Shown piece by piece: positions 56,758 through 63,353 of a stretch of 64,000 nt of DNA. Position 1 is the stretch's first letter. Every line of letters begins with the position of its first letter. Position numbers and translations under genes: made by a program. The stretch comes from a virus. Lineage: Duplodnaviria; Caudoviricetes. The stretch is from the IMG/VR virus record IMGVR_UViG_3300008740_000001, positions 128,001 through 192,000 of that record. One strand, 5' to 3'. Below the pieces are notes generated by a model, which saw only the letters and a program-made list of their open reading frames with translations, did not search any database and had not been told where the DNA came from.

Positions 56758-56975
56758 GTCAGAGCCAGCACTACTATAATCCGCAAGTGGGCGATTTGGT
56801 GCGAATCATCGAGGGTACACACGATCCGAGCATGCCCGAAGATCGTATTGGTCTGATCGTGGAGATTCTGCAACAGGAACCGGGAGACGCCCCGCGCAGT
56901 CACGATACTTTTATGGTCAAGTTTGGCACCCGTACCTTGAAGTTCCACAAGATGTGGCTTGAAAAAGTCTCTTGA
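56754..56975 (+). CDS. Small SH3-like protein
   Basis: PQVGDLVRI...IGLIV...LEKVS. Confidence 0.55.
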   Translation: MSQSQHYYNPQVGDLVRIIEGTHDPSMPEDRIGLIVEILQQEPGDAPRSHDTFMVKFGTRTLKFHKMWLEKVS

Positions 56976-58400: not shown

Positions 58401-58485
58401 GGCGCGGTGGTGGAATCGGTATACACAGCAGACTTAAAATCTGCCGCTTTTTAGCTTGCGGGTTCGAGTCCCGCCCGCGCTACCA
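58401..58485 (+). tRNA. tRNA-Leu(TAA)
   Basis: Acceptor GGCGCGG/CCGCGCT, anticodon arm GCAGA-CTTAAAA-TCTGC, long variable arm, T arm GCGGG-TTCGAGT-CCCGC, encoded CCA. Confidence 0.95.
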
Positions 58486-58499
58486 TTTTTCGCTGCCCT

Positions 58500-58595
58500 G
58501 TTCAGCGGCGGGACTTGCGACCCGCCTTGAAGTGCAGACCGTCACTAGGAGCAGAGGCGAAGTCTACGGGCTTCGACCTAACCGCTGCTGCCACG
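58500..58595 (+). ncRNA. Candidate structured ncRNA downstream of tRNA-Leu
   Basis: Closing CAGCGG/CCGCTG, internal hairpins CGGG..CCCG, AGTG..CACT, and GAAGTC-TACG-GGCTTC (C-UACG-G tetraloop). Confidence 0.5.
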
Positions 58596-58660
58596 AATCG
58601 GTGCTGGGGGTTTCTTTTTATTCGCTTCTAGTTATTATAGTATAGCTTGGAGGCTTTATC

Positions 58661-58843
58661 ATGATTATCATTCCACTTGACAAACTTGAAAAACTACGAA
58701 TCGAACAAGGCAAGGAGAGGCCAACCGACCGGCCCGCGCTGCAGTTGCCCGTGCCGGAGCATATGCCAGAAGCAATACACAGCGGGTCGGTTGAGCCGAC
58801 CGAGGACGAAACCGGTGCTGCAATCATAGATTTCACCCTTTGA
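58661..58843 (+). CDS. Hypothetical protein
   Basis: GGAGG SD; stop codon lies inside the first TTGACA box. Confidence 0.55.
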   Translation: MIIIPLDKLEKLRIEQGKERPTDRPALQLPVPEHMPEAIHSGSVEPTEDETGAAIIDFTL

Positions 58844-58894
58844 CATTCTCTTGACAACTTGGCTATTGACGCCACACCTCTCGCATGTTATATT
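58840..58894 (+). promoter_or_regulatory. Triple -35 promoter
   Basis: TTGACA(58840), TTGACA(58851), TTGACG(58866)-N17-TATATT. Confidence 0.82.
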
Positions 58895-58900
58895 ATATAC

Positions 58901-59071
58901 ATGAAACGAAGAAAGACAAAGGCACCGAAGTCGCGCAACTGGCTTGCGGTACATGCACGAATGGACTTGGCCACTGGTGGCGAGCGCAAAGGCGCTGGAC
59001 CGCACGGAGGCCGGAAGCAGCGTTATAGCCGCAAGGTAAAGCACAAGGGGCGTACTAATGAAAGTCGGTGA
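58901..59071 (+). CDS. Small basic protein, ArfA-like C-terminus
   Basis: RN.LA...KGAG...YSRKVKHKG; ends NESR* in the cassette junction. Confidence 0.5.
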   Translation: MKRRKTKAPKSRNWLAVHARMDLATGGERKGAGPHGGRKQRYSRKVKHKGRTNESR

Positions 59072-59219
59072 TCTGATCATGTCGAAAGACGGATACCATA
59101 CTGCGCTAGTGGTGAGTATTGTCGGAGCCGCTGCTTTCAACCGCATCAAAGTGCTGGTTGTTGGCAGCGACACGCCCGAAATGTGCGATCCGAGAATGTG
59201 GGAGGTTATAAGTGGATAG
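59058..59219 (+). CDS. SH3-like cassette protein (not in the ORF track)
   Basis: MKVGDLIMSKDG...WEVISG*, 53 aa, translated by hand. Confidence 0.65.
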   Translation: MKVGDLIMSKDGYHTALVVSIVGAAAFNRIKVLVVGSDTPEMCDPRMWEVISG

Positions 59220-59340
59220 CCTGCCTCAAACTCCCTTGGTGGCTTTTCTTTACATCTTTGCCTTCATAGGTCTTGGCATATTGATTAGTCAGGCCAGTCA
59301 TATTTTATACGACATTTGGGAAGATTGGAGGAAGAAGTGA
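59212..59340 (+). CDS. Small single-TM protein (42 aa)
   Basis: GGAGG SD, GTG start; LVAFLYIFAFIGLGILI. Confidence 0.5.
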   Translation: MDSLPQTPLVAFLYIFAFIGLGILISQASHILYDIWEDWRKK

Positions 59341-59420
59341 GAAGTATATTGGTAACTATTGGAATCGTGGTAACGATTTTCGTGCTTTCGTTTGCTATTA
59401 CATTGGCGCTAACAGCATGA
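59337..59420 (+). CDS. Small hydrophobic peptide (27 aa)
   Basis: GGAGG SD, GTGA and ATGA couplings at both ends; MRSILVTIGIVVTIFVLSFAITLALTA. Confidence 0.45.
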   Translation: MRSILVTIGIVVTIFVLSFAITLALTA

Positions 59421-59617
59421 AAGTCGGTGATTTGGTGCGCCCAACAGACAGAAACCTTCTATCGGGAAGCCGACGAGTTGGCATTGTTGTGCATGTGGAT
59501 ACCGGATGGGATAACAAACAAGTAAGAGTAAAGTGGGACATCCCCTCGTGGATGGACGATGAGGGTTTGGCGTCTGAATCTCCCGAGAACCTAGAGGTGA
59601 TCAGTGAAAGTCGGTGA
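59417..59617 (+). CDS. SH3-like cassette protein
   Basis: MKVGDLV...LEVISESR*. Confidence 0.7.
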   Translation: MKVGDLVRPTDRNLLSGSRRVGIVVHVDTGWDNKQVRVKWDIPSWMDDEGLASESPENLEVISESR

Positions 59618-59765
59618 CTTGGTTCGACATTGGTTGACAGAACAACTCGGTATTATCCTCGATGTTGGGTTTCACAATATCAGGGTTCAGTGGCTAGATG
59701 AGATCGTCTTTGGTGTTGAAGAACTTGATCCTCGCAACGTGGAGGTGGTCAGTGAAGCCCGGTGA
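59604..59765 (+). CDS. SH3-like cassette protein (not in the ORF track)
   Basis: MKVGDLVRHW...VEVVSEAR*, 53 aa, translated by hand. Confidence 0.65.
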   Translation: MKVGDLVRHWLTEQLGIILDVGFHNIRVQWLDEIVFGVEELDPRNVEVVSEAR

Positions 59766-59940
59766 TCTGGTAAGGCATTCCGAGCCTGTGGACCGGGCTG
59801 AGTTTGATGCTGTTGGTGTTGTTGTTGAGATTCAAGAAGATTGGATGAAGAACTGGTCAAAAGTAAAAGTAATGTGGACCGGCCTTCAGGTTCCAGTATG
59901 GGAACCAATCCGCTGCGTCAAACTCTTTACATCCTCTTGA
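59752..59940 (+). CDS. SH3-like cassette protein
   Basis: MKPGDLVRH...VGVVV...VKVMW; GGAGG SD. Confidence 0.65.
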   Translation: MKPGDLVRHSEPVDRAEFDAVGVVVEIQEDWMKNWSKVKVMWTGLQVPVWEPIRCVKLFTSS

Positions 59941-59980
59941 CAAGATTCTTGTTGACAGCCACAAACCCTTGTGCTATAAT
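59926..59980 (+). promoter_or_regulatory. Triple -35 promoter
   Basis: TTTACA(59926), TTGACA(59937), TTGACA(59952)-N17-TATAAT. Confidence 0.8.
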
Positions 59981-60005
59981 ACATAGGTAAATCGGAGAAC
60001 ACACC

Positions 60006-60344
60006 ATGAATATCGAACTAACCGAAGATGAGATTATCATGATCCTTGACTGCATTGGAGCACGGATTGAGGATCTTCAAGAAACCTTGGCATGGACACC
60101 TGATTGCGGCGAATCTGCCGATCAGCTATCCGCATTGGCCGATCTGGATATGGACTTGCGCGAGCAGTCCAACCGGCGGGACGATGGCTGGAATGACGAA
60201 GTGACTGAAACCTTTACGACGAACCTAGTCCAGTCTGCCATCGACGACTGGCAATCAAAAGTAACCTCTAGCTCGAAGGCCGCCAGCAGGCGGCAGGCCC
60301 GGTGGCTAGGACTGAACCGAACAACCAACAAAGGGAATGAATAG
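60006..60344 (+). CDS. Hypothetical helical protein
   Basis: GGAG SD, first ORF after the promoter. Confidence 0.55.
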   Translation: MNIELTEDEIIMILDCIGARIEDLQETLAWTPDCGESADQLSALADLDMDLREQSNRRDDGWNDEVTETFTTNLVQSAIDDWQSKVTSSSKAASRRQARWLGLNRTTNKGNE

Positions 60345-60540
60345 CATGGCGATTTGCATCGAATGTGAAGAAGAATACAACGACAAGCGGAAAGCCTTGG
60401 GCTACCGCACTTGCTTGGACTGTGGAGGTCGAGCAGCAAACAGGACCATCCGGGCCCGAAACGCTGCCAGCTTGCGGGCTATGACCCCGAACCACTACGA
60501 AGGCAGCGTGGAGGATATGTTTGACAAGCGCCCCTCTTGA
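60337..60540 (+). CDS. C4 zinc-finger protein (TraR/DksA-like finger)
   Basis: CIEC-x15-CLDC with internal R...G. Confidence 0.5.
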   Translation: MNSMAICIECEEEYNDKRKALGYRTCLDCGGRAANRTIRARNAASLRAMTPNHYEGSVEDMFDKRPS

Positions 60541-60544
60541 AGCC

Positions 60545-60599
60545 TTGACATTTACTTGACAAGAAATGCCTTGCCATCTAGTGCAGGGCATGATATATT
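60545..60599 (+). promoter_or_regulatory. Triple -35 promoter
   Basis: TTGACA(60545), TTGACA(60556), TTGCCA(60571)-N17-TATATT. Confidence 0.82.
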
Positions 60600-60605
60600 A
60601 TATAC

Positions 60606-60890
60606 ATGAGCCAAAGGAGAAATCTCATGATGCCTGACTACGATCCAGATTTTCAAGTCTACACCGATATGGAGCAGTGTAACCGCTTTGAAGCCTCGTA
60701 CTTTGATCACGAGGCCGAGTTGGTTGTTGCAGCATCTACCCTTCTGGAGTCGAAAGGACCGGGCGGCTATGATGCTTCGCATACCGAGTTTTTGTCACAG
60801 TTTGGTTCAGGCACACTGGTGCTTCGTCGCACTAGCGAACAGTGCCCCGGCTGGTGGCGTGTTCACAACTTTATCCCGACGAGGTGGTAA
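60606..60890 (+). CDS. Hypothetical protein
   Basis: First ORF after the promoter; alternative start after AAGGAG. Confidence 0.5.
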   Translation: MSQRRNLMMPDYDPDFQVYTDMEQCNRFEASYFDHEAELVVAASTLLESKGPGGYDASHTEFLSQFGSGTLVLRRTSEQCPGWWRVHNFIPTRW

Positions 60891-61196
60891 ATGGAACTTT
60901 GGGTCATGACAGGTACATATAACGGCGAACATTTCGCCACAACCCACTTGACCGAAGTCGGAGCATTGAAATCAATGATCTTCGACGTACTCCAGTTTCT
61001 TGGCATCGAGGAAGAAGAACATGCGAGAGCAGATCCCGACGCAGCAGAAAAGCCAGACTTGGAGTGGAGCCCGCAAGTGATTGGAGAAATGGAAGTTGAT
61101 GAACTGCGGTCCCTAATGCGTAAGTACCACCAATACACTTGGGACAACTGCGAAGGGTACTCCATAGAAATATGCCGGTGCCAACTGGAAGCATGA
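60891..61196 (+). CDS. Hypothetical protein
   Basis: GAGGTG SD, coupled ORF. Confidence 0.55.
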   Translation: MELWVMTGTYNGEHFATTHLTEVGALKSMIFDVLQFLGIEEEEHARADPDAAEKPDLEWSPQVIGEMEVDELRSLMRKYHQYTWDNCEGYSIEICRCQLEA

Positions 61197-61423
61197 TTAG
61201 TAAACTTAGCCGACAACCACGGCGCAGCTTTGCGCCCCGACGCAGCAAGGCCCCGAGAATGGGGGATGTGGTGATCCATAAAGTTGATAAGTCTCTCGGT
61301 GTGGGTCTGGTTATGGAATGCTGGGGGATCGATTGCTTGGTTCAATGGGCCAAAACAATCGTGGAGCCAGATCCATGCTGGCATCGCCGCGTCAAGCTAG
61401 AGGTGATTAGTGAAAGTCGGTGA
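61193..61423 (+). CDS. SH3-like cassette protein
   Basis: RMGDVV...GLV...VQW...LEVISESR*. Confidence 0.6.
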   Translation: MISKLSRQPRRSFAPRRSKAPRMGDVVIHKVDKSLGVGLVMECWGIDCLVQWAKTIVEPDPCWHRRVKLEVISESR

Positions 61424-61607
61424 TTTGGTGATTATGCCGGGGTCGGGTATTGTTCCTGAAAGGCCAGCAATCGGCATTATAGTAACGCCCCGTGTCAACA
61501 GGGGAAAGACCCGCAGGACTGCCCGAATCGGTGTCATGTGGTCGGATGGCGATGGCGTGGATATGGAACCTTGTCACTGGCTGGAGGTGATTAGTGAAAG
61601 TCGGTGA
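61410..61607 (+). CDS. SH3-like cassette protein
   Basis: MKVGDLV...LEVISESR*. Confidence 0.7.
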   Translation: MKVGDLVIMPGSGIVPERPAIGIIVTPRVNRGKTRRTARIGVMWSDGDGVDMEPCHWLEVISESR

Positions 61608-61878
61608 TTTAGTGGTTCAAGGCAATCGAGTCTTGATGATAAAGGGCAGTAAGCGCAAGTCGAAAATGATTGGTGTTGTTGTAGCGATCCGTGACATGCC
61701 GCCCGCCCGACCGGAAGAAACTGAAGTGTTGAGACAAATGATGGCTATGCTAGGGCGTCAGGTTGATGTGCTTTGGCCTAATGGCCATGTGTCTAAAAAC
61801 TTTGCCGAGAACGGTTTAGAGGTTGTAACGTCCAAAGAAGAATGGCTGGAGGCTGTTAGTGACGTACAAGAAGGGTGA
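61594..61878 (+). CDS. SH3-like cassette protein
   Basis: MKVGDLV...GVVV...VLW...LEVV...EAVSD. Confidence 0.7.
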   Translation: MKVGDLVVQGNRVLMIKGSKRKSKMIGVVVAIRDMPPARPEETEVLRQMMAMLGRQVDVLWPNGHVSKNFAENGLEVVTSKEEWLEAVSDVQEG

Positions 61879-62065
61879 TTTGGTCGAAGTTAGGCGTATT
61901 CTGGGTGTGGGCGATGGGTTTCATCCACGGCGACGGGGCATAGTTCTGCAAACGACAGCGGCGATTTCTGACAACGATCCCAAAGGTGTTCTGGTGATGA
62001 TCAACGACGGAGTTGAGGCTAGCGAGTGGTATGCTTGGCAACTTGAAATGATTAGTGAAAAGTAA
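61859..62065 (+). CDS. SH3-like cassette protein
   Basis: MTYKKGDLV...GIV...LEMISEK*. Confidence 0.65.
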   Translation: MTYKKGDLVEVRRILGVGDGFHPRRRGIVLQTTAAISDNDPKGVLVMINDGVEASEWYAWQLEMISEK

Positions 62066-62119
62066 ACTTTGACATCTGAGTTTCTCCGCCGAGACTACTT
62101 ACAAGCGACGAGGTGAAAA

Positions 62120-62296
62120 ATGAAAGAAGTTGATGTAAAGCTGAACACCGGGCAGATTGAGATGATCGAAGAAGCCTTGCAGCTATTGCGAGTAACTTAT
62201 GACGGCAGCACTATCATTGGCAAGATCCGCCTGCGCGATGTGAAGTCGCTAGCAAGGAAGATGCACGAGGCGAAAGAGGACGCAGAAACGCCTTGA
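62120..62296 (+). CDS. Hypothetical protein (58 aa, not in the ORF track)
   Basis: GAGGTG SD; MKEVDVKLNTGQIEMIEEAL...; stop codon inside a TTGACA box. Confidence 0.55.
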   Translation: MKEVDVKLNTGQIEMIEEALQLLRVTYDGSTIIGKIRLRDVKSLARKMHEAKEDAETP

Positions 62297-62347
62297 CACA
62301 CTCTTGACAACTGAACTCTTGACAGGCTAGCCCGCAGATGGTATATT
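62293..62347 (+). promoter_or_regulatory. Triple -35 promoter
   Basis: TTGACA(62293), TTGACA(62304), TTGACA(62319)-N17-TATATT. Confidence 0.85.
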
Positions 62348-62353
62348 ATAGGC

Positions 62354-62584
62354 ATGATGATTGGTGATCTAGTGCTGGTTCATTGGGGCAACAGCGACTA
62401 TTCCGGCGCAGAGGGTGTCGATTGGGGTCGTTCCCCCGGCATCGTCATTGGCGAGGTCCGGTACTGGAATGAGGACGCCCGAGCCAGCAACTCGCCCGTG
62501 TGTGGCGATGTTGATCTATGGTTTCGTAACGAAAGAATCTCATACAATATCGGACGATGCGAGGTGATCAATGAAAGTGCCTAG
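62354..62584 (+). CDS. SH3-like cassette protein
   Basis: MMIGDLV...GIVI...EVINESA*. Confidence 0.7.
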   Translation: MMIGDLVLVHWGNSDYSGAEGVDWGRSPGIVIGEVRYWNEDARASNSPVCGDVDLWFRNERISYNIGRCEVINESA

Positions 62585-62753
62585 CCTAAAGATTGGTGAT
62601 CTGGTTGTTCGCACCTATGGAGAAGGACAAAGGCCGATGGCGCTCGTCGTTGGCCGGTTCAATGCGTTGATCGTAAAAGTAAAGTGGCTGGGCTCTGACA
62701 TGATCGAAGATGTGAACAGTCAATATCTGGAGGTAATCAATGAAAGTCGGTGA
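62571..62753 (+). CDS. SH3-like cassette protein
   Basis: MKVPSLKIGDLV...LEVINESR*. Confidence 0.7.
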   Translation: MKVPSLKIGDLVVRTYGEGQRPMALVVGRFNALIVKVKWLGSDMIEDVNSQYLEVINESR

Positions 62754-62937
62754 CTTGATAACTCTCACATATGAGGGTGAACCACTTGATGATCGGGCTG
62801 TGGGCATTGTTACCTGTATTGATCCCGAAGAACTTGGCGACGACGAAGAAGTTGAAGTATGGTGGATCGGTCATTTCACCGGCCACAGCAATCACTCAAC
62901 ATGGAATCTGGAGGTTATTAGTGATGCAAGTAGGTGA
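62740..62937 (+). CDS. SH3-like cassette protein
   Basis: MKVGDLI...LEVISDASR*. Confidence 0.7.
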   Translation: MKVGDLITLTYEGEPLDDRAVGIVTCIDPEELGDDEEVEVWWIGHFTGHSNHSTWNLEVISDASR

Positions 62938-63154
62938 CATAGTTCAGGGCGAAGCATGCAGCAACTTGGATGCTGTTGGCATCATTATATCGAAATCAAC
63001 ATCACCACCGTGGGCTGGAGGTCCAGACCGAATCGTGGTGTGCATAACAAAGAGCGCCGCGAACAATCATACAGACAAGTTTCAAGCAGGTAGTCACGCA
63101 TCAACAAAGGTCAGTTATAATCTTTGGAAGGTCATTAGTCATGCAAGTCGGTGA
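62924..63154 (+). CDS. SH3-like cassette protein
   Basis: MQVGDIV...KVISHASR*; probable true start is the ATG at 62924 after GGAGG. Confidence 0.68.
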   Translation: MQVGDIVQGEACSNLDAVGIIISKSTSPPWAGGPDRIVVCITKSAANNHTDKFQAGSHASTKVSYNLWKVISHASR

Positions 63155-63353
63155 TTTGGTGAGAAACTACATGACGGAACAACTGGGTACTGTTGTTGCT
63201 GAGTCGTGTCGCGTTACTGGTGGTAACGATACTGACGAGCCTCATAGTTTTCAAGTGCTGTGGACTACTACGGGCGATTTTGGAGGCGAAGTTGGGTCTA
63301 AAGAATGGACAGGCCCGACGTTTGTGGAGATATTGGATGATGATCGGTCTTGA
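63141..63353 (+). CDS. SH3-like cassette protein
   Basis: MQVGDLV...VEILDDDRS*. Confidence 0.68.
   Translation: MQVGDLVRNYMTEQLGTVVAESCRVTGGNDTDEPHSFQVLWTTTGDFGGEVGSKEWTGPTFVEILDDDRS

Follow-up and report, generated by a model that had tools for sequence, protein, structure and literature searches.

Genome Setting

The DNA analyzed here (the window, 64,000 nucleotides in all) comes from an IMG/VR virus record of 203,859 bp, of which it covers bases 128001-192000; the record has direct terminal repeats. Its long open reading frames (ORFs) are all on the + strand, its GC content is about 46%, and its genes include those for a DnaE-type polymerase, GroEL, and tail proteins. The whole genome carries seven tRNAs and one tmRNA. 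When the trailers of these tRNAs were compared, only that of the tRNA-Leu(UAA) in the window proved to be GC-rich (59%) and strongly folded. This trailer holds the element described below (58495-58611, + strand, about 117 nt, the relatives being 120-215 nt long), whose parts are listed in Table 1.

The element sits in the early region, in which triple-TTGACA promoters recur at about 56972, 58840, 59926, and onwards. These promoters are found in blocks of about 70 nt with three TTGACA-like boxes and a -10 sequence TATATTATA (58835-58904, 60540-60609, 62288-62357, and others), and gene-start junctions with the sequence GGAGGTGATnAGTGAAAGTCGGTGA are repeated through 59000-63200. An ORF of 60 codons with a GGAGG ribosome-binding site (58661-58843, + strand) lies downstream of the element, ahead of the next early promoter. 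No relative of this ORF was found in IMG/VR and, from its position, it would be expressed only by read-through of the U-rich run that follows the element.

A second tRNA cluster (tmRNA, Gly, Lys, Ile, Arg, and Asn) is located at 19.5-27 kb of the same genome. There, a non-coding, multi-hairpin stretch of about 170 nt directly follows tRNA-Lys (G000:C1:22201-22370, outside the window) and may be another passenger RNA of a tRNA array. The tRNA-Ile(UAU) is unusually long, 95 nt, both in this phage (G000:C1:23124-23218) and in the related phage G002 (L272:9042-9136), and the tRNA-Asp of G002 reaches 98 nt (L272:8358-8455) with a weak, tRNA-Sec-like Rfam score; these long tRNA-Ile(UAU) and tRNA-Asp may carry an intron or a long extra arm.

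Table 1. Positions in the window of the upstream tRNA and of the predicted parts of the element
Feature	Position	Strand	Remarks
tRNA-Leu(UAA), CCA encoded	58401-58485	+	Found by ARAGORN; Rfam tRNA model, 58.6 bits; directly upstream of the element
U-rich spacer UUUUUCGCUG	58486-58495	+	10 nt from CCA to fold; putative endonuclease entry site
S1, 5′ strand CCC	58496-58498	+	Pairs with 58607-09; two of three pairs changed on both sides, 100% paired
Bulge between S1 and S2	58499-58502	+	3-4 nt; UGUU here, GCU, GUUU, and GUU in the relatives
S2, 5′ strand CAGC(G)	58503-58507	+	Invariant in all four copies; 58503-06 pairs with 58603-06
H1 hairpin	58508-58525	+	Stem 58508-12/58521-25, loop 58513-20; GCG/CGC base invariant
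Junction CUUGA	58526-58530	+	Conserved; CUUGA, CUUAA, and CUUGG(G) in the relatives
H2 hairpin	58531-58546	+	4-bp stem 58531-34/58543-46, 8-nt loop CAGACCGU; three of four pairs covary
H3, variable extended arm	58548-58592	+	In all members; sequence and length unrelated
Junction ACGAAU	58593-58598	+	Conserved; ACGAAU, ACGAGA, and GCGAAAU in the relatives
Pseudoknot, 3′ strand CGGU	58599-58602	+	Pairs with ACCG of the H2 loop, 58538-41; three of four pairs changed on both sides
S2, 3′ strand GCUG, and S1, 3′ strand GGG	58603-06, 58607-09	+	Contiguous
U-rich run UUUCUUUUUA	58611-58620	+	Right after the closing helix; putative terminator in this phage

Relatives of the Element

BLAST searches of INPHARED phages with the element returned only tRNAs or noise, as did those with the copies L044 and L002 described below. 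For the ORF of 113 amino acids just upstream, IMG/VR yielded 24 relatives and marine metagenomes 300 (80 kept), all at identities of 70% or less, and no close relative of the phage is thus among them; tblastn with this ORF reached only distant cultured phages. In the trailers of near-identical tRNA-Leu genes from eight relatives, a ribosome-binding site and a gene follow within about 20 nt and the element is absent.

Relatives of the element were found by structure. A covariance model of the cloverleaf as it had first been drawn gave two weak matches of 13.9 and 13.5 bits. By eye, both of them share with the window two 5′ blocks with a hairpin in between (UCAGCGGCG, hairpin, CGCCUUGA) and the 3′ block ACGAAUCGGYGCUGGG, and both carry complementary pyrimidine and purine strands at their two ends. 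With the structure corrected, a single-sequence model (R2) retrieved from 357 kb the copies L044:1824-1966 (33.6 bits, E 1.5e-6) and L002:1901-2032 (19.5 bits). A three-sequence model (R3) then retrieved from 1.53 Mb a fourth copy with 37.3 bits and an E-value of 2.9e-6; it lies at L272:8271-8056, on the minus strand of G002, a complete phage record of 184 kb. The E-values of both searches come from a shortened calibration and are rough. R3 on a further 1.05 Mb gave no additional member.

In total, about 2.9 Mb of DNA from related marine phages contain four members. Nine complete genomes are covered, the one described here by R3 on the window and by a structural descriptor on the whole record, and the other eight (G001-G005, G007, G008, and G011) by R3. 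Two of the nine, this one and G002, have the element; the seven others do not, so the element is dispensable. These counts rest on cmsearch of whole fetched records, which replaced an insensitive screening of genome collections: the latter missed members that score 19.5 and 37.3 bits by direct cmsearch, and its negatives count little.

A structure-only descriptor, in which the stem sequences were free and only the CUURA junction was specified, found the three then-known members and one AT-rich chance match in 3.3 Mb on both strands; matches to a relaxed version were no commoner than in shuffles. Among exact-pattern scans of IMG/VR, one had no match, a looser one gave 119+ chance matches, and the others hit only the contig of L002. 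A 24-base pattern matched four times in 185,579 prokaryote species genomes, in each case by chance in a GC-rich genome.

Secondary Structure

Comparison of the four copies shows the predicted fold to be a four-way junction in which a bipartite closing helix, S1 plus S2, surrounds the hairpins H1 and H2 and a variable arm, H3 (Table 1). S1 is longer, 7-8 bp, in L044 and L002. G58507 at the end of S2 can pair with U58602 or lengthen H1. The upper pairs of H1 covary by eye, GG:CC here against AA:UU in L044 and L002, although in the alignment only the fourth pair, in the upper stem, is scored in all four copies, L044 and L002 being gapped at the fifth; the G002 copy has an insertion of about 89 nt in this hairpin. 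The middle segment of each of the four copies folds into a single irregular hairpin of unrelated sequence, which makes H3 a variable arm. The loop of H2 pairs with a junction strand just before the closing helix, and this predicted pseudoknot reads ACCG:CGGU, GCUG:CGGC, GCUA:UAGU, and ACCA:UGGU across the four copies. The pseudoknot, S2, and S1 have their 3′ strands end to end, so that a single strand pairs first with the H2 loop, then in S2, and last in S1.

A sequence-only reading of this stretch had drawn a cloverleaf-like RNA closed by CAGCGG (58503-08) and CCGCTG (58582-87). This complementarity is present in the sequence, but it is not conserved as a closing stem: the real partner of the 5′ strand is GCUG at 58603-06, extended by CCC/GGG (58496-98/58607-09), while CCGCTG pairs with 58550-54 within the variable arm, and the cloverleaf as first drawn is 20 kcal/mol worse than the minimum free energy (MFE) fold. 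The topology of a closing helix with three arms thus stands; the closing helix had been mis-assigned and the pseudoknot missed. Two of the hairpins drawn there, CGGG-8 nt-CCCG and AGTG-8 nt-CACT, are H1 and H2, both conserved and covarying. The third, with a UACG loop, does exist as 10 bp with a bulged A, but as a lineage-specific tip of the variable arm 58548-92, and CTGCCA, which had been placed after the structure, is found at 58588-93, internal to the fold and not a CCA-like end.

An alternative fold with the T arm and acceptor of tRNA-Leu had also been proposed. GGCGGGACTT (58507-16) is indeed complementary to GAGTCCCGCC (58466-75) with one G-U pair; this pairing is peculiar to this phage and not conserved, H1 being GCGAA/UUCGC in L044 and L002, unlike that of the window. 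The stem of H1 in the window, GCGGG/CCCGC (58507-58526), is identical to the T stem of tRNA-Leu (58459-58476), an identity not seen in the other three members and probably due to chance or a local peculiarity.

Statistical and Comparative Support

Folding energy does not single the element out. The 140-nt stretch alone has an MFE of -51.9 kcal/mol on the + strand against -47.8 +/- 3.8 for shuffles (z -1.09), 27 out of 200 dinucleotide shuffles fold at least as well, and the minus strand gives a z of -1.41. Thermodynamics alone thus reveals no significant fold, and it is the comparison with the relatives that shows the element to be real. In favor of the conserved fold, enforcing its pairs in the window gives -45.8 instead of -51.9 kcal/mol, a cost of only 6 with the pseudoknot uncounted.

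All 20 conserved pairs form in the four sequences (78 cells, 100% paired) and 10 of them are changed on both sides, compared with 4.2 +/- 1.5 in column shuffles, none of which reached 10 in 500, although the alignment was fitted to a model with four of the five helices and the structure was taken from three of the four sequences, so that the pair counts are inflated except for the pseudoknot and the fourth sequence. When the partners are slid by 1-3 columns, pairing falls to 33-62% and at most one pair is changed on both sides. The pseudoknot helix was in none of the search models, and the fold including the pseudoknot had been fixed on three sequences before the G002 copy was found; this copy satisfies every pair and brings a new compensatory change in the pseudoknot, from G:C to A:U. 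The circularity is therefore limited. Moreover, RNAalifold unaided recovers S1, S2, H1, and H2, and the G-U pairs in S2 and the pseudoknot are compatible with the + strand only. As a comparative prediction, the fold is well supported for a family of four, a size at which conserved single-stranded bases and exact helix ends are poorly defined.

Genomic Context of the Four Copies

Each of the four copies is found within about 140 nt of a tRNA, in different arrangements. In the window, tRNA-Leu is followed by 10 nt, the element, and the U-rich run. In G002, the element fills a 218-nt gap in an array of seven genes (tmRNA, tRNA-Ile, -Asp, -Asn, the element, -Arg, -Leu, and -Thr), with 10 nt separating it from tRNA-Asn and 8 nt from tRNA-Arg, and is preceded by a spacer, UUUUCUCGUA, similar to that of the window; a U-rich 10-nt spacer is therefore common to both copies that directly follow a tRNA. 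In L044, a homologue of the 113-aa ORF precedes the element and tRNA-Lys follows after 28 nt. In L002, a promoter, tRNA-Lys, and tRNA-Met are followed at about 140 nt by the element and then by a promoter-like site.

The downstream neighbor is different in every locus, which argues against a cis-regulatory leader, and the presence of a tRNA downstream in two loci argues against termination as the conserved role. The U run at 58611-20 is not conserved, tRNAs coming next in L044 and G002. About 40 nt upstream of the L002 copy there is a terminator-like hairpin, UAUGGCAUGUGCCAUA, followed by U6 (L002:1846-1867), inside a hydrophobic mini-ORF of 23 codons between tRNA-Met and the element; this copy may therefore be poorly transcribed or have its own start.

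Comparison with Established RNA Classes

Rfam 15 gave nothing at E<=10 for the window copy (58486-58625), and for the three relatives only weak, sub-threshold chance matches, the best with 17.1 bits against a gathering threshold of 44.9, and no relevant family. A tRNA or tRNA-like gene can be rejected: ARAGORN calls only 58401-58485, the Rfam tRNA model is unscored at E<=10 on 58486-58625, and the arms do not fit, H2 having 4 bp with an 8-nt loop and H3 measuring 45 nt. A small ORF is rejected as well, since no frame is open across the three translated copies (window, L044, and L002); L044 and L002 have stops in every frame, and in L002 a TAA comes before the ‘ES.LG’ stretch that the copies share. 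Nor is there a conserved intrinsic terminator, a U run being present in the window and, spaced, in L002 and absent in L044 and G002; a simple terminator scan found none at 58490-58625.

The topology of HDV and theta ribozymes was sought with descriptors. In this nested double pseudoknot, a P1 of 6-7 bp has its 3′ strand directly behind P3 and P2 involves the 3′ end, and self-cleavage depends on a catalytic C in J4/2. A strict one had no solution in 58476-58640, compared with a mean of 23 in shuffles, and one in which a 30-nt insertion was allowed after P3 had 147 solutions against 377 in shuffles, that is, the motif is under-represented. The 3′ half of an HDV P1 would need the strand taken by the conserved CUUGA junction and by H2, which pairs with itself. 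The cleavage geometry of theta does not fit either: the fold begins 10 nt past CCA, and in the strict scan no P1 starts at 58481-58490.

Interpretation and Alternative Explanations

Judged by this comparative evidence, the element is a real, conserved, folded, and previously uncatalogued family of non-coding RNA. The new tRNA-associated RNA proposed in the sequence-only reading is thus borne out by a covarying family that lacks an Rfam match and adjoins tRNAs in four out of four loci; of the checks suggested there, covariation across related phages gave a structure conserved in four copies, and the Rfam search, in matching no family, fits a new RNA. Its other suggestion, a processing element or ribozyme, was not sustained, given the lack of an HDV-like topology, the lack of an Rfam ribozyme, and the variable distance to tRNA ends. 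The more specific reading, that 58495-58611 (+) is a discrete structured small RNA of a new, rare family located in tRNA and early regions of uncultured marine phages of about 200 kb, we consider fairly probable. Most likely, by analogy, it would be released from tRNA transcripts as a stable small RNA, working like the RNAs C and D of phage T4 and unrelated to them; that it is a discrete stable species we infer from its position only.

Other readings have to be weighed against this small RNA. [quoted passage not shown] In the window, UUUCUUUUU comes straight after S1/S2 and the next early promoter is 230 nt downstream, and in L002 there is a U-rich run 4 nt past the fold, with a promoter-like site (TTGACT-17-TACTAT) at about 20 nt. 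However, a same-strand tRNA follows the fold after 8 nt in G002 and after 28 nt in L044 without a U run, so transcription must read through there; termination would also leave the conserved H1, H2, junctions, and pseudoknot unexplained, and the simple terminator scan was negative. We regard such a role as unlikely for the family, although the closing helix and the UUUCUUUUU behind it may double as the end of the early transcript in this one phage. Very unlikely is processing of the tRNA transcript by self-cleavage, the element being a ribozyme of a new class or an aberrant one of the HDV/theta kind. The attraction of this idea lies in the position next to tRNAs, in a compact pseudoknotted fold with conserved junction bases, and in the theta ribozymes known 3′ of phage tRNAs including tRNA-Leu (PMC10879173). 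Against it stand the scarcity of HDV-like descriptor solutions given above, the covariation-supported H2 and pseudoknot, which are incompatible with an HDV P1 in need of the strand right after P3, the failure of all four copies to score with an Rfam ribozyme family at E<=10, and a distance to the tRNA that varies (10 nt after, 28 nt before, and about 140 nt after), while theta cuts within +/-5 nt.

A four-way junction with a loop-to-junction pseudoknot is also an aptamer-like architecture, and the window and L044 both have an internal copy of the 3′ strand of the closing helix (58582-87; GCUGGGA in L044) that could pair instead. A ligand-sensing riboswitch or attenuator of the downstream gene, here the ORF 58661-58843, with the closing helix as terminator stem, is nevertheless highly improbable: the downstream partner is in turn an orphan ORF, tRNA-Lys, a promoter, and tRNA-Arg, the orphan ORF is without a relative in IMG/VR, and no Rfam riboswitch matches. 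Least credible of all is that the hairpins arose by chance in a functionless GC-rich trailer or in what is left of a degenerate tRNA. The MFE z of only -1.1, the five relatives in which a gene starts right after a near-identical tRNA-Leu without the element, and the H1 stem shared with the T stem of the adjacent tRNA-Leu would all agree with it, but 20 out of 20 pairs are kept with compensatory changes in four homologues at different loci, neither ARAGORN nor the Rfam tRNA model calls the element, and the H1 of the relatives is unlike their tRNAs. Covariation has already largely refuted this reading, as the observed differences exclude recent copies without independent substitutions.

Finally, the element might belong to a functional class of RNA that uses phage tRNA arrays as a platform for expression and processing, being itself a new ribozyme class or an RNA that binds a protein or a ligand with high affinity, for example, a decoy for a host tRNA-targeting defense nuclease or for an RNA-processing enzyme. 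We hold this to be decidedly unlikely.

Relation to Known Phage RNAs and Proposed Mode of Production

That stable RNAs other than tRNAs occur in phage tRNA clusters has been known for fifty years. RNAs C and D of T4 (species 1 and 2 RNA; rnaC and rnaD) are non-tRNA genes of 119-139 nt, arranged head-to-tail with tRNA genes; in the T4 record, rnaD abuts tRNA-Arg and is followed by rnaC. Both are excised from tRNA precursor transcripts, and to our knowledge their role is still unexplained. The likeness to our element is that of a non-tRNA gene in a same-strand tRNA array, a trait of the G002, window, and L044 copies, whereas host range and phage lineage differ, and we know of no four-way junction with a pseudoknot in the T4 RNAs. 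Indeed, cmsearch with R2 on T4 69500-73500, filters off, did not match rnaC or rnaD and gave a single 2.2-bit match that barely touches the start of rnaC. The closest analogue of the family is thus functional, not evolutionary.

In its general plan, the predicted fold is like that of SAM-I-type aptamers: in the SAM-I riboswitch, a closing helix holds three arms and one hairpin loop pairs with a junction strand. Differences from riboswitch aptamers lie in the missing Rfam riboswitch match, in the lack of a conserved downstream gene or expression platform, and in the pseudoknot strand, which here is contiguous with the closing helix.

Like a theta ribozyme, the element is a structured RNA with a pseudoknot that directly follows a phage tRNA. 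Theta itself consists of a nested double pseudoknot of about 50-60 nt and cleaves within +/-5 nt of the tRNA end; theta ribozymes are found in gut phages, tRNA-Leu is among the tRNAs commonly associated with them, and CCA is encoded in only 4.5% of the associated tRNAs (PMC10879173). In contrast, the tRNA next to our element encodes CCA, the fold starts 10 nt later, and relatives also precede tRNAs or stand apart from them.

As a stable small RNA, the element would be made within early, tRNA-containing transcripts, which here would start at the triple-TTGACA promoter near 56972. Its 5′ end might be released by a cut in the U-rich spacer after the CCA of the upstream tRNA, made by tRNA-maturing enzymes, and, in loci with a tRNA downstream, its 3′ end by RNase P cutting at the 5′ end of that tRNA. 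Thanks to its closed ends and its pseudoknot, the RNA could then escape exonucleases and would accumulate as a stable species. Most speculatively, it may act in trans, likely through binding of a protein.

Implications

In experimental terms, the element is a compact RNA whose compensatory mutations are clear, and structure probing, cleavage assays, and pull-downs can all start from it. Annotators gain an explanation for a ‘gap’ in tRNA arrays and a reason to look for structured RNAs in other gaps of this kind. Probably, the family is a second RNA family, unrelated to the first, in the niche of T4 RNAs C and D, occurring in quite different phages (uncultured, about 200 kb, and marine), and unrelated families in the same niche would suggest that it is the niche, not a particular sequence, that recurs. 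If the tRNA arrays did serve as a platform for such a functional class, passenger RNAs, those named C and D in T4 included, would be a general and functionally important feature of phage tRNA clusters, and the element would be the first described member of its class.
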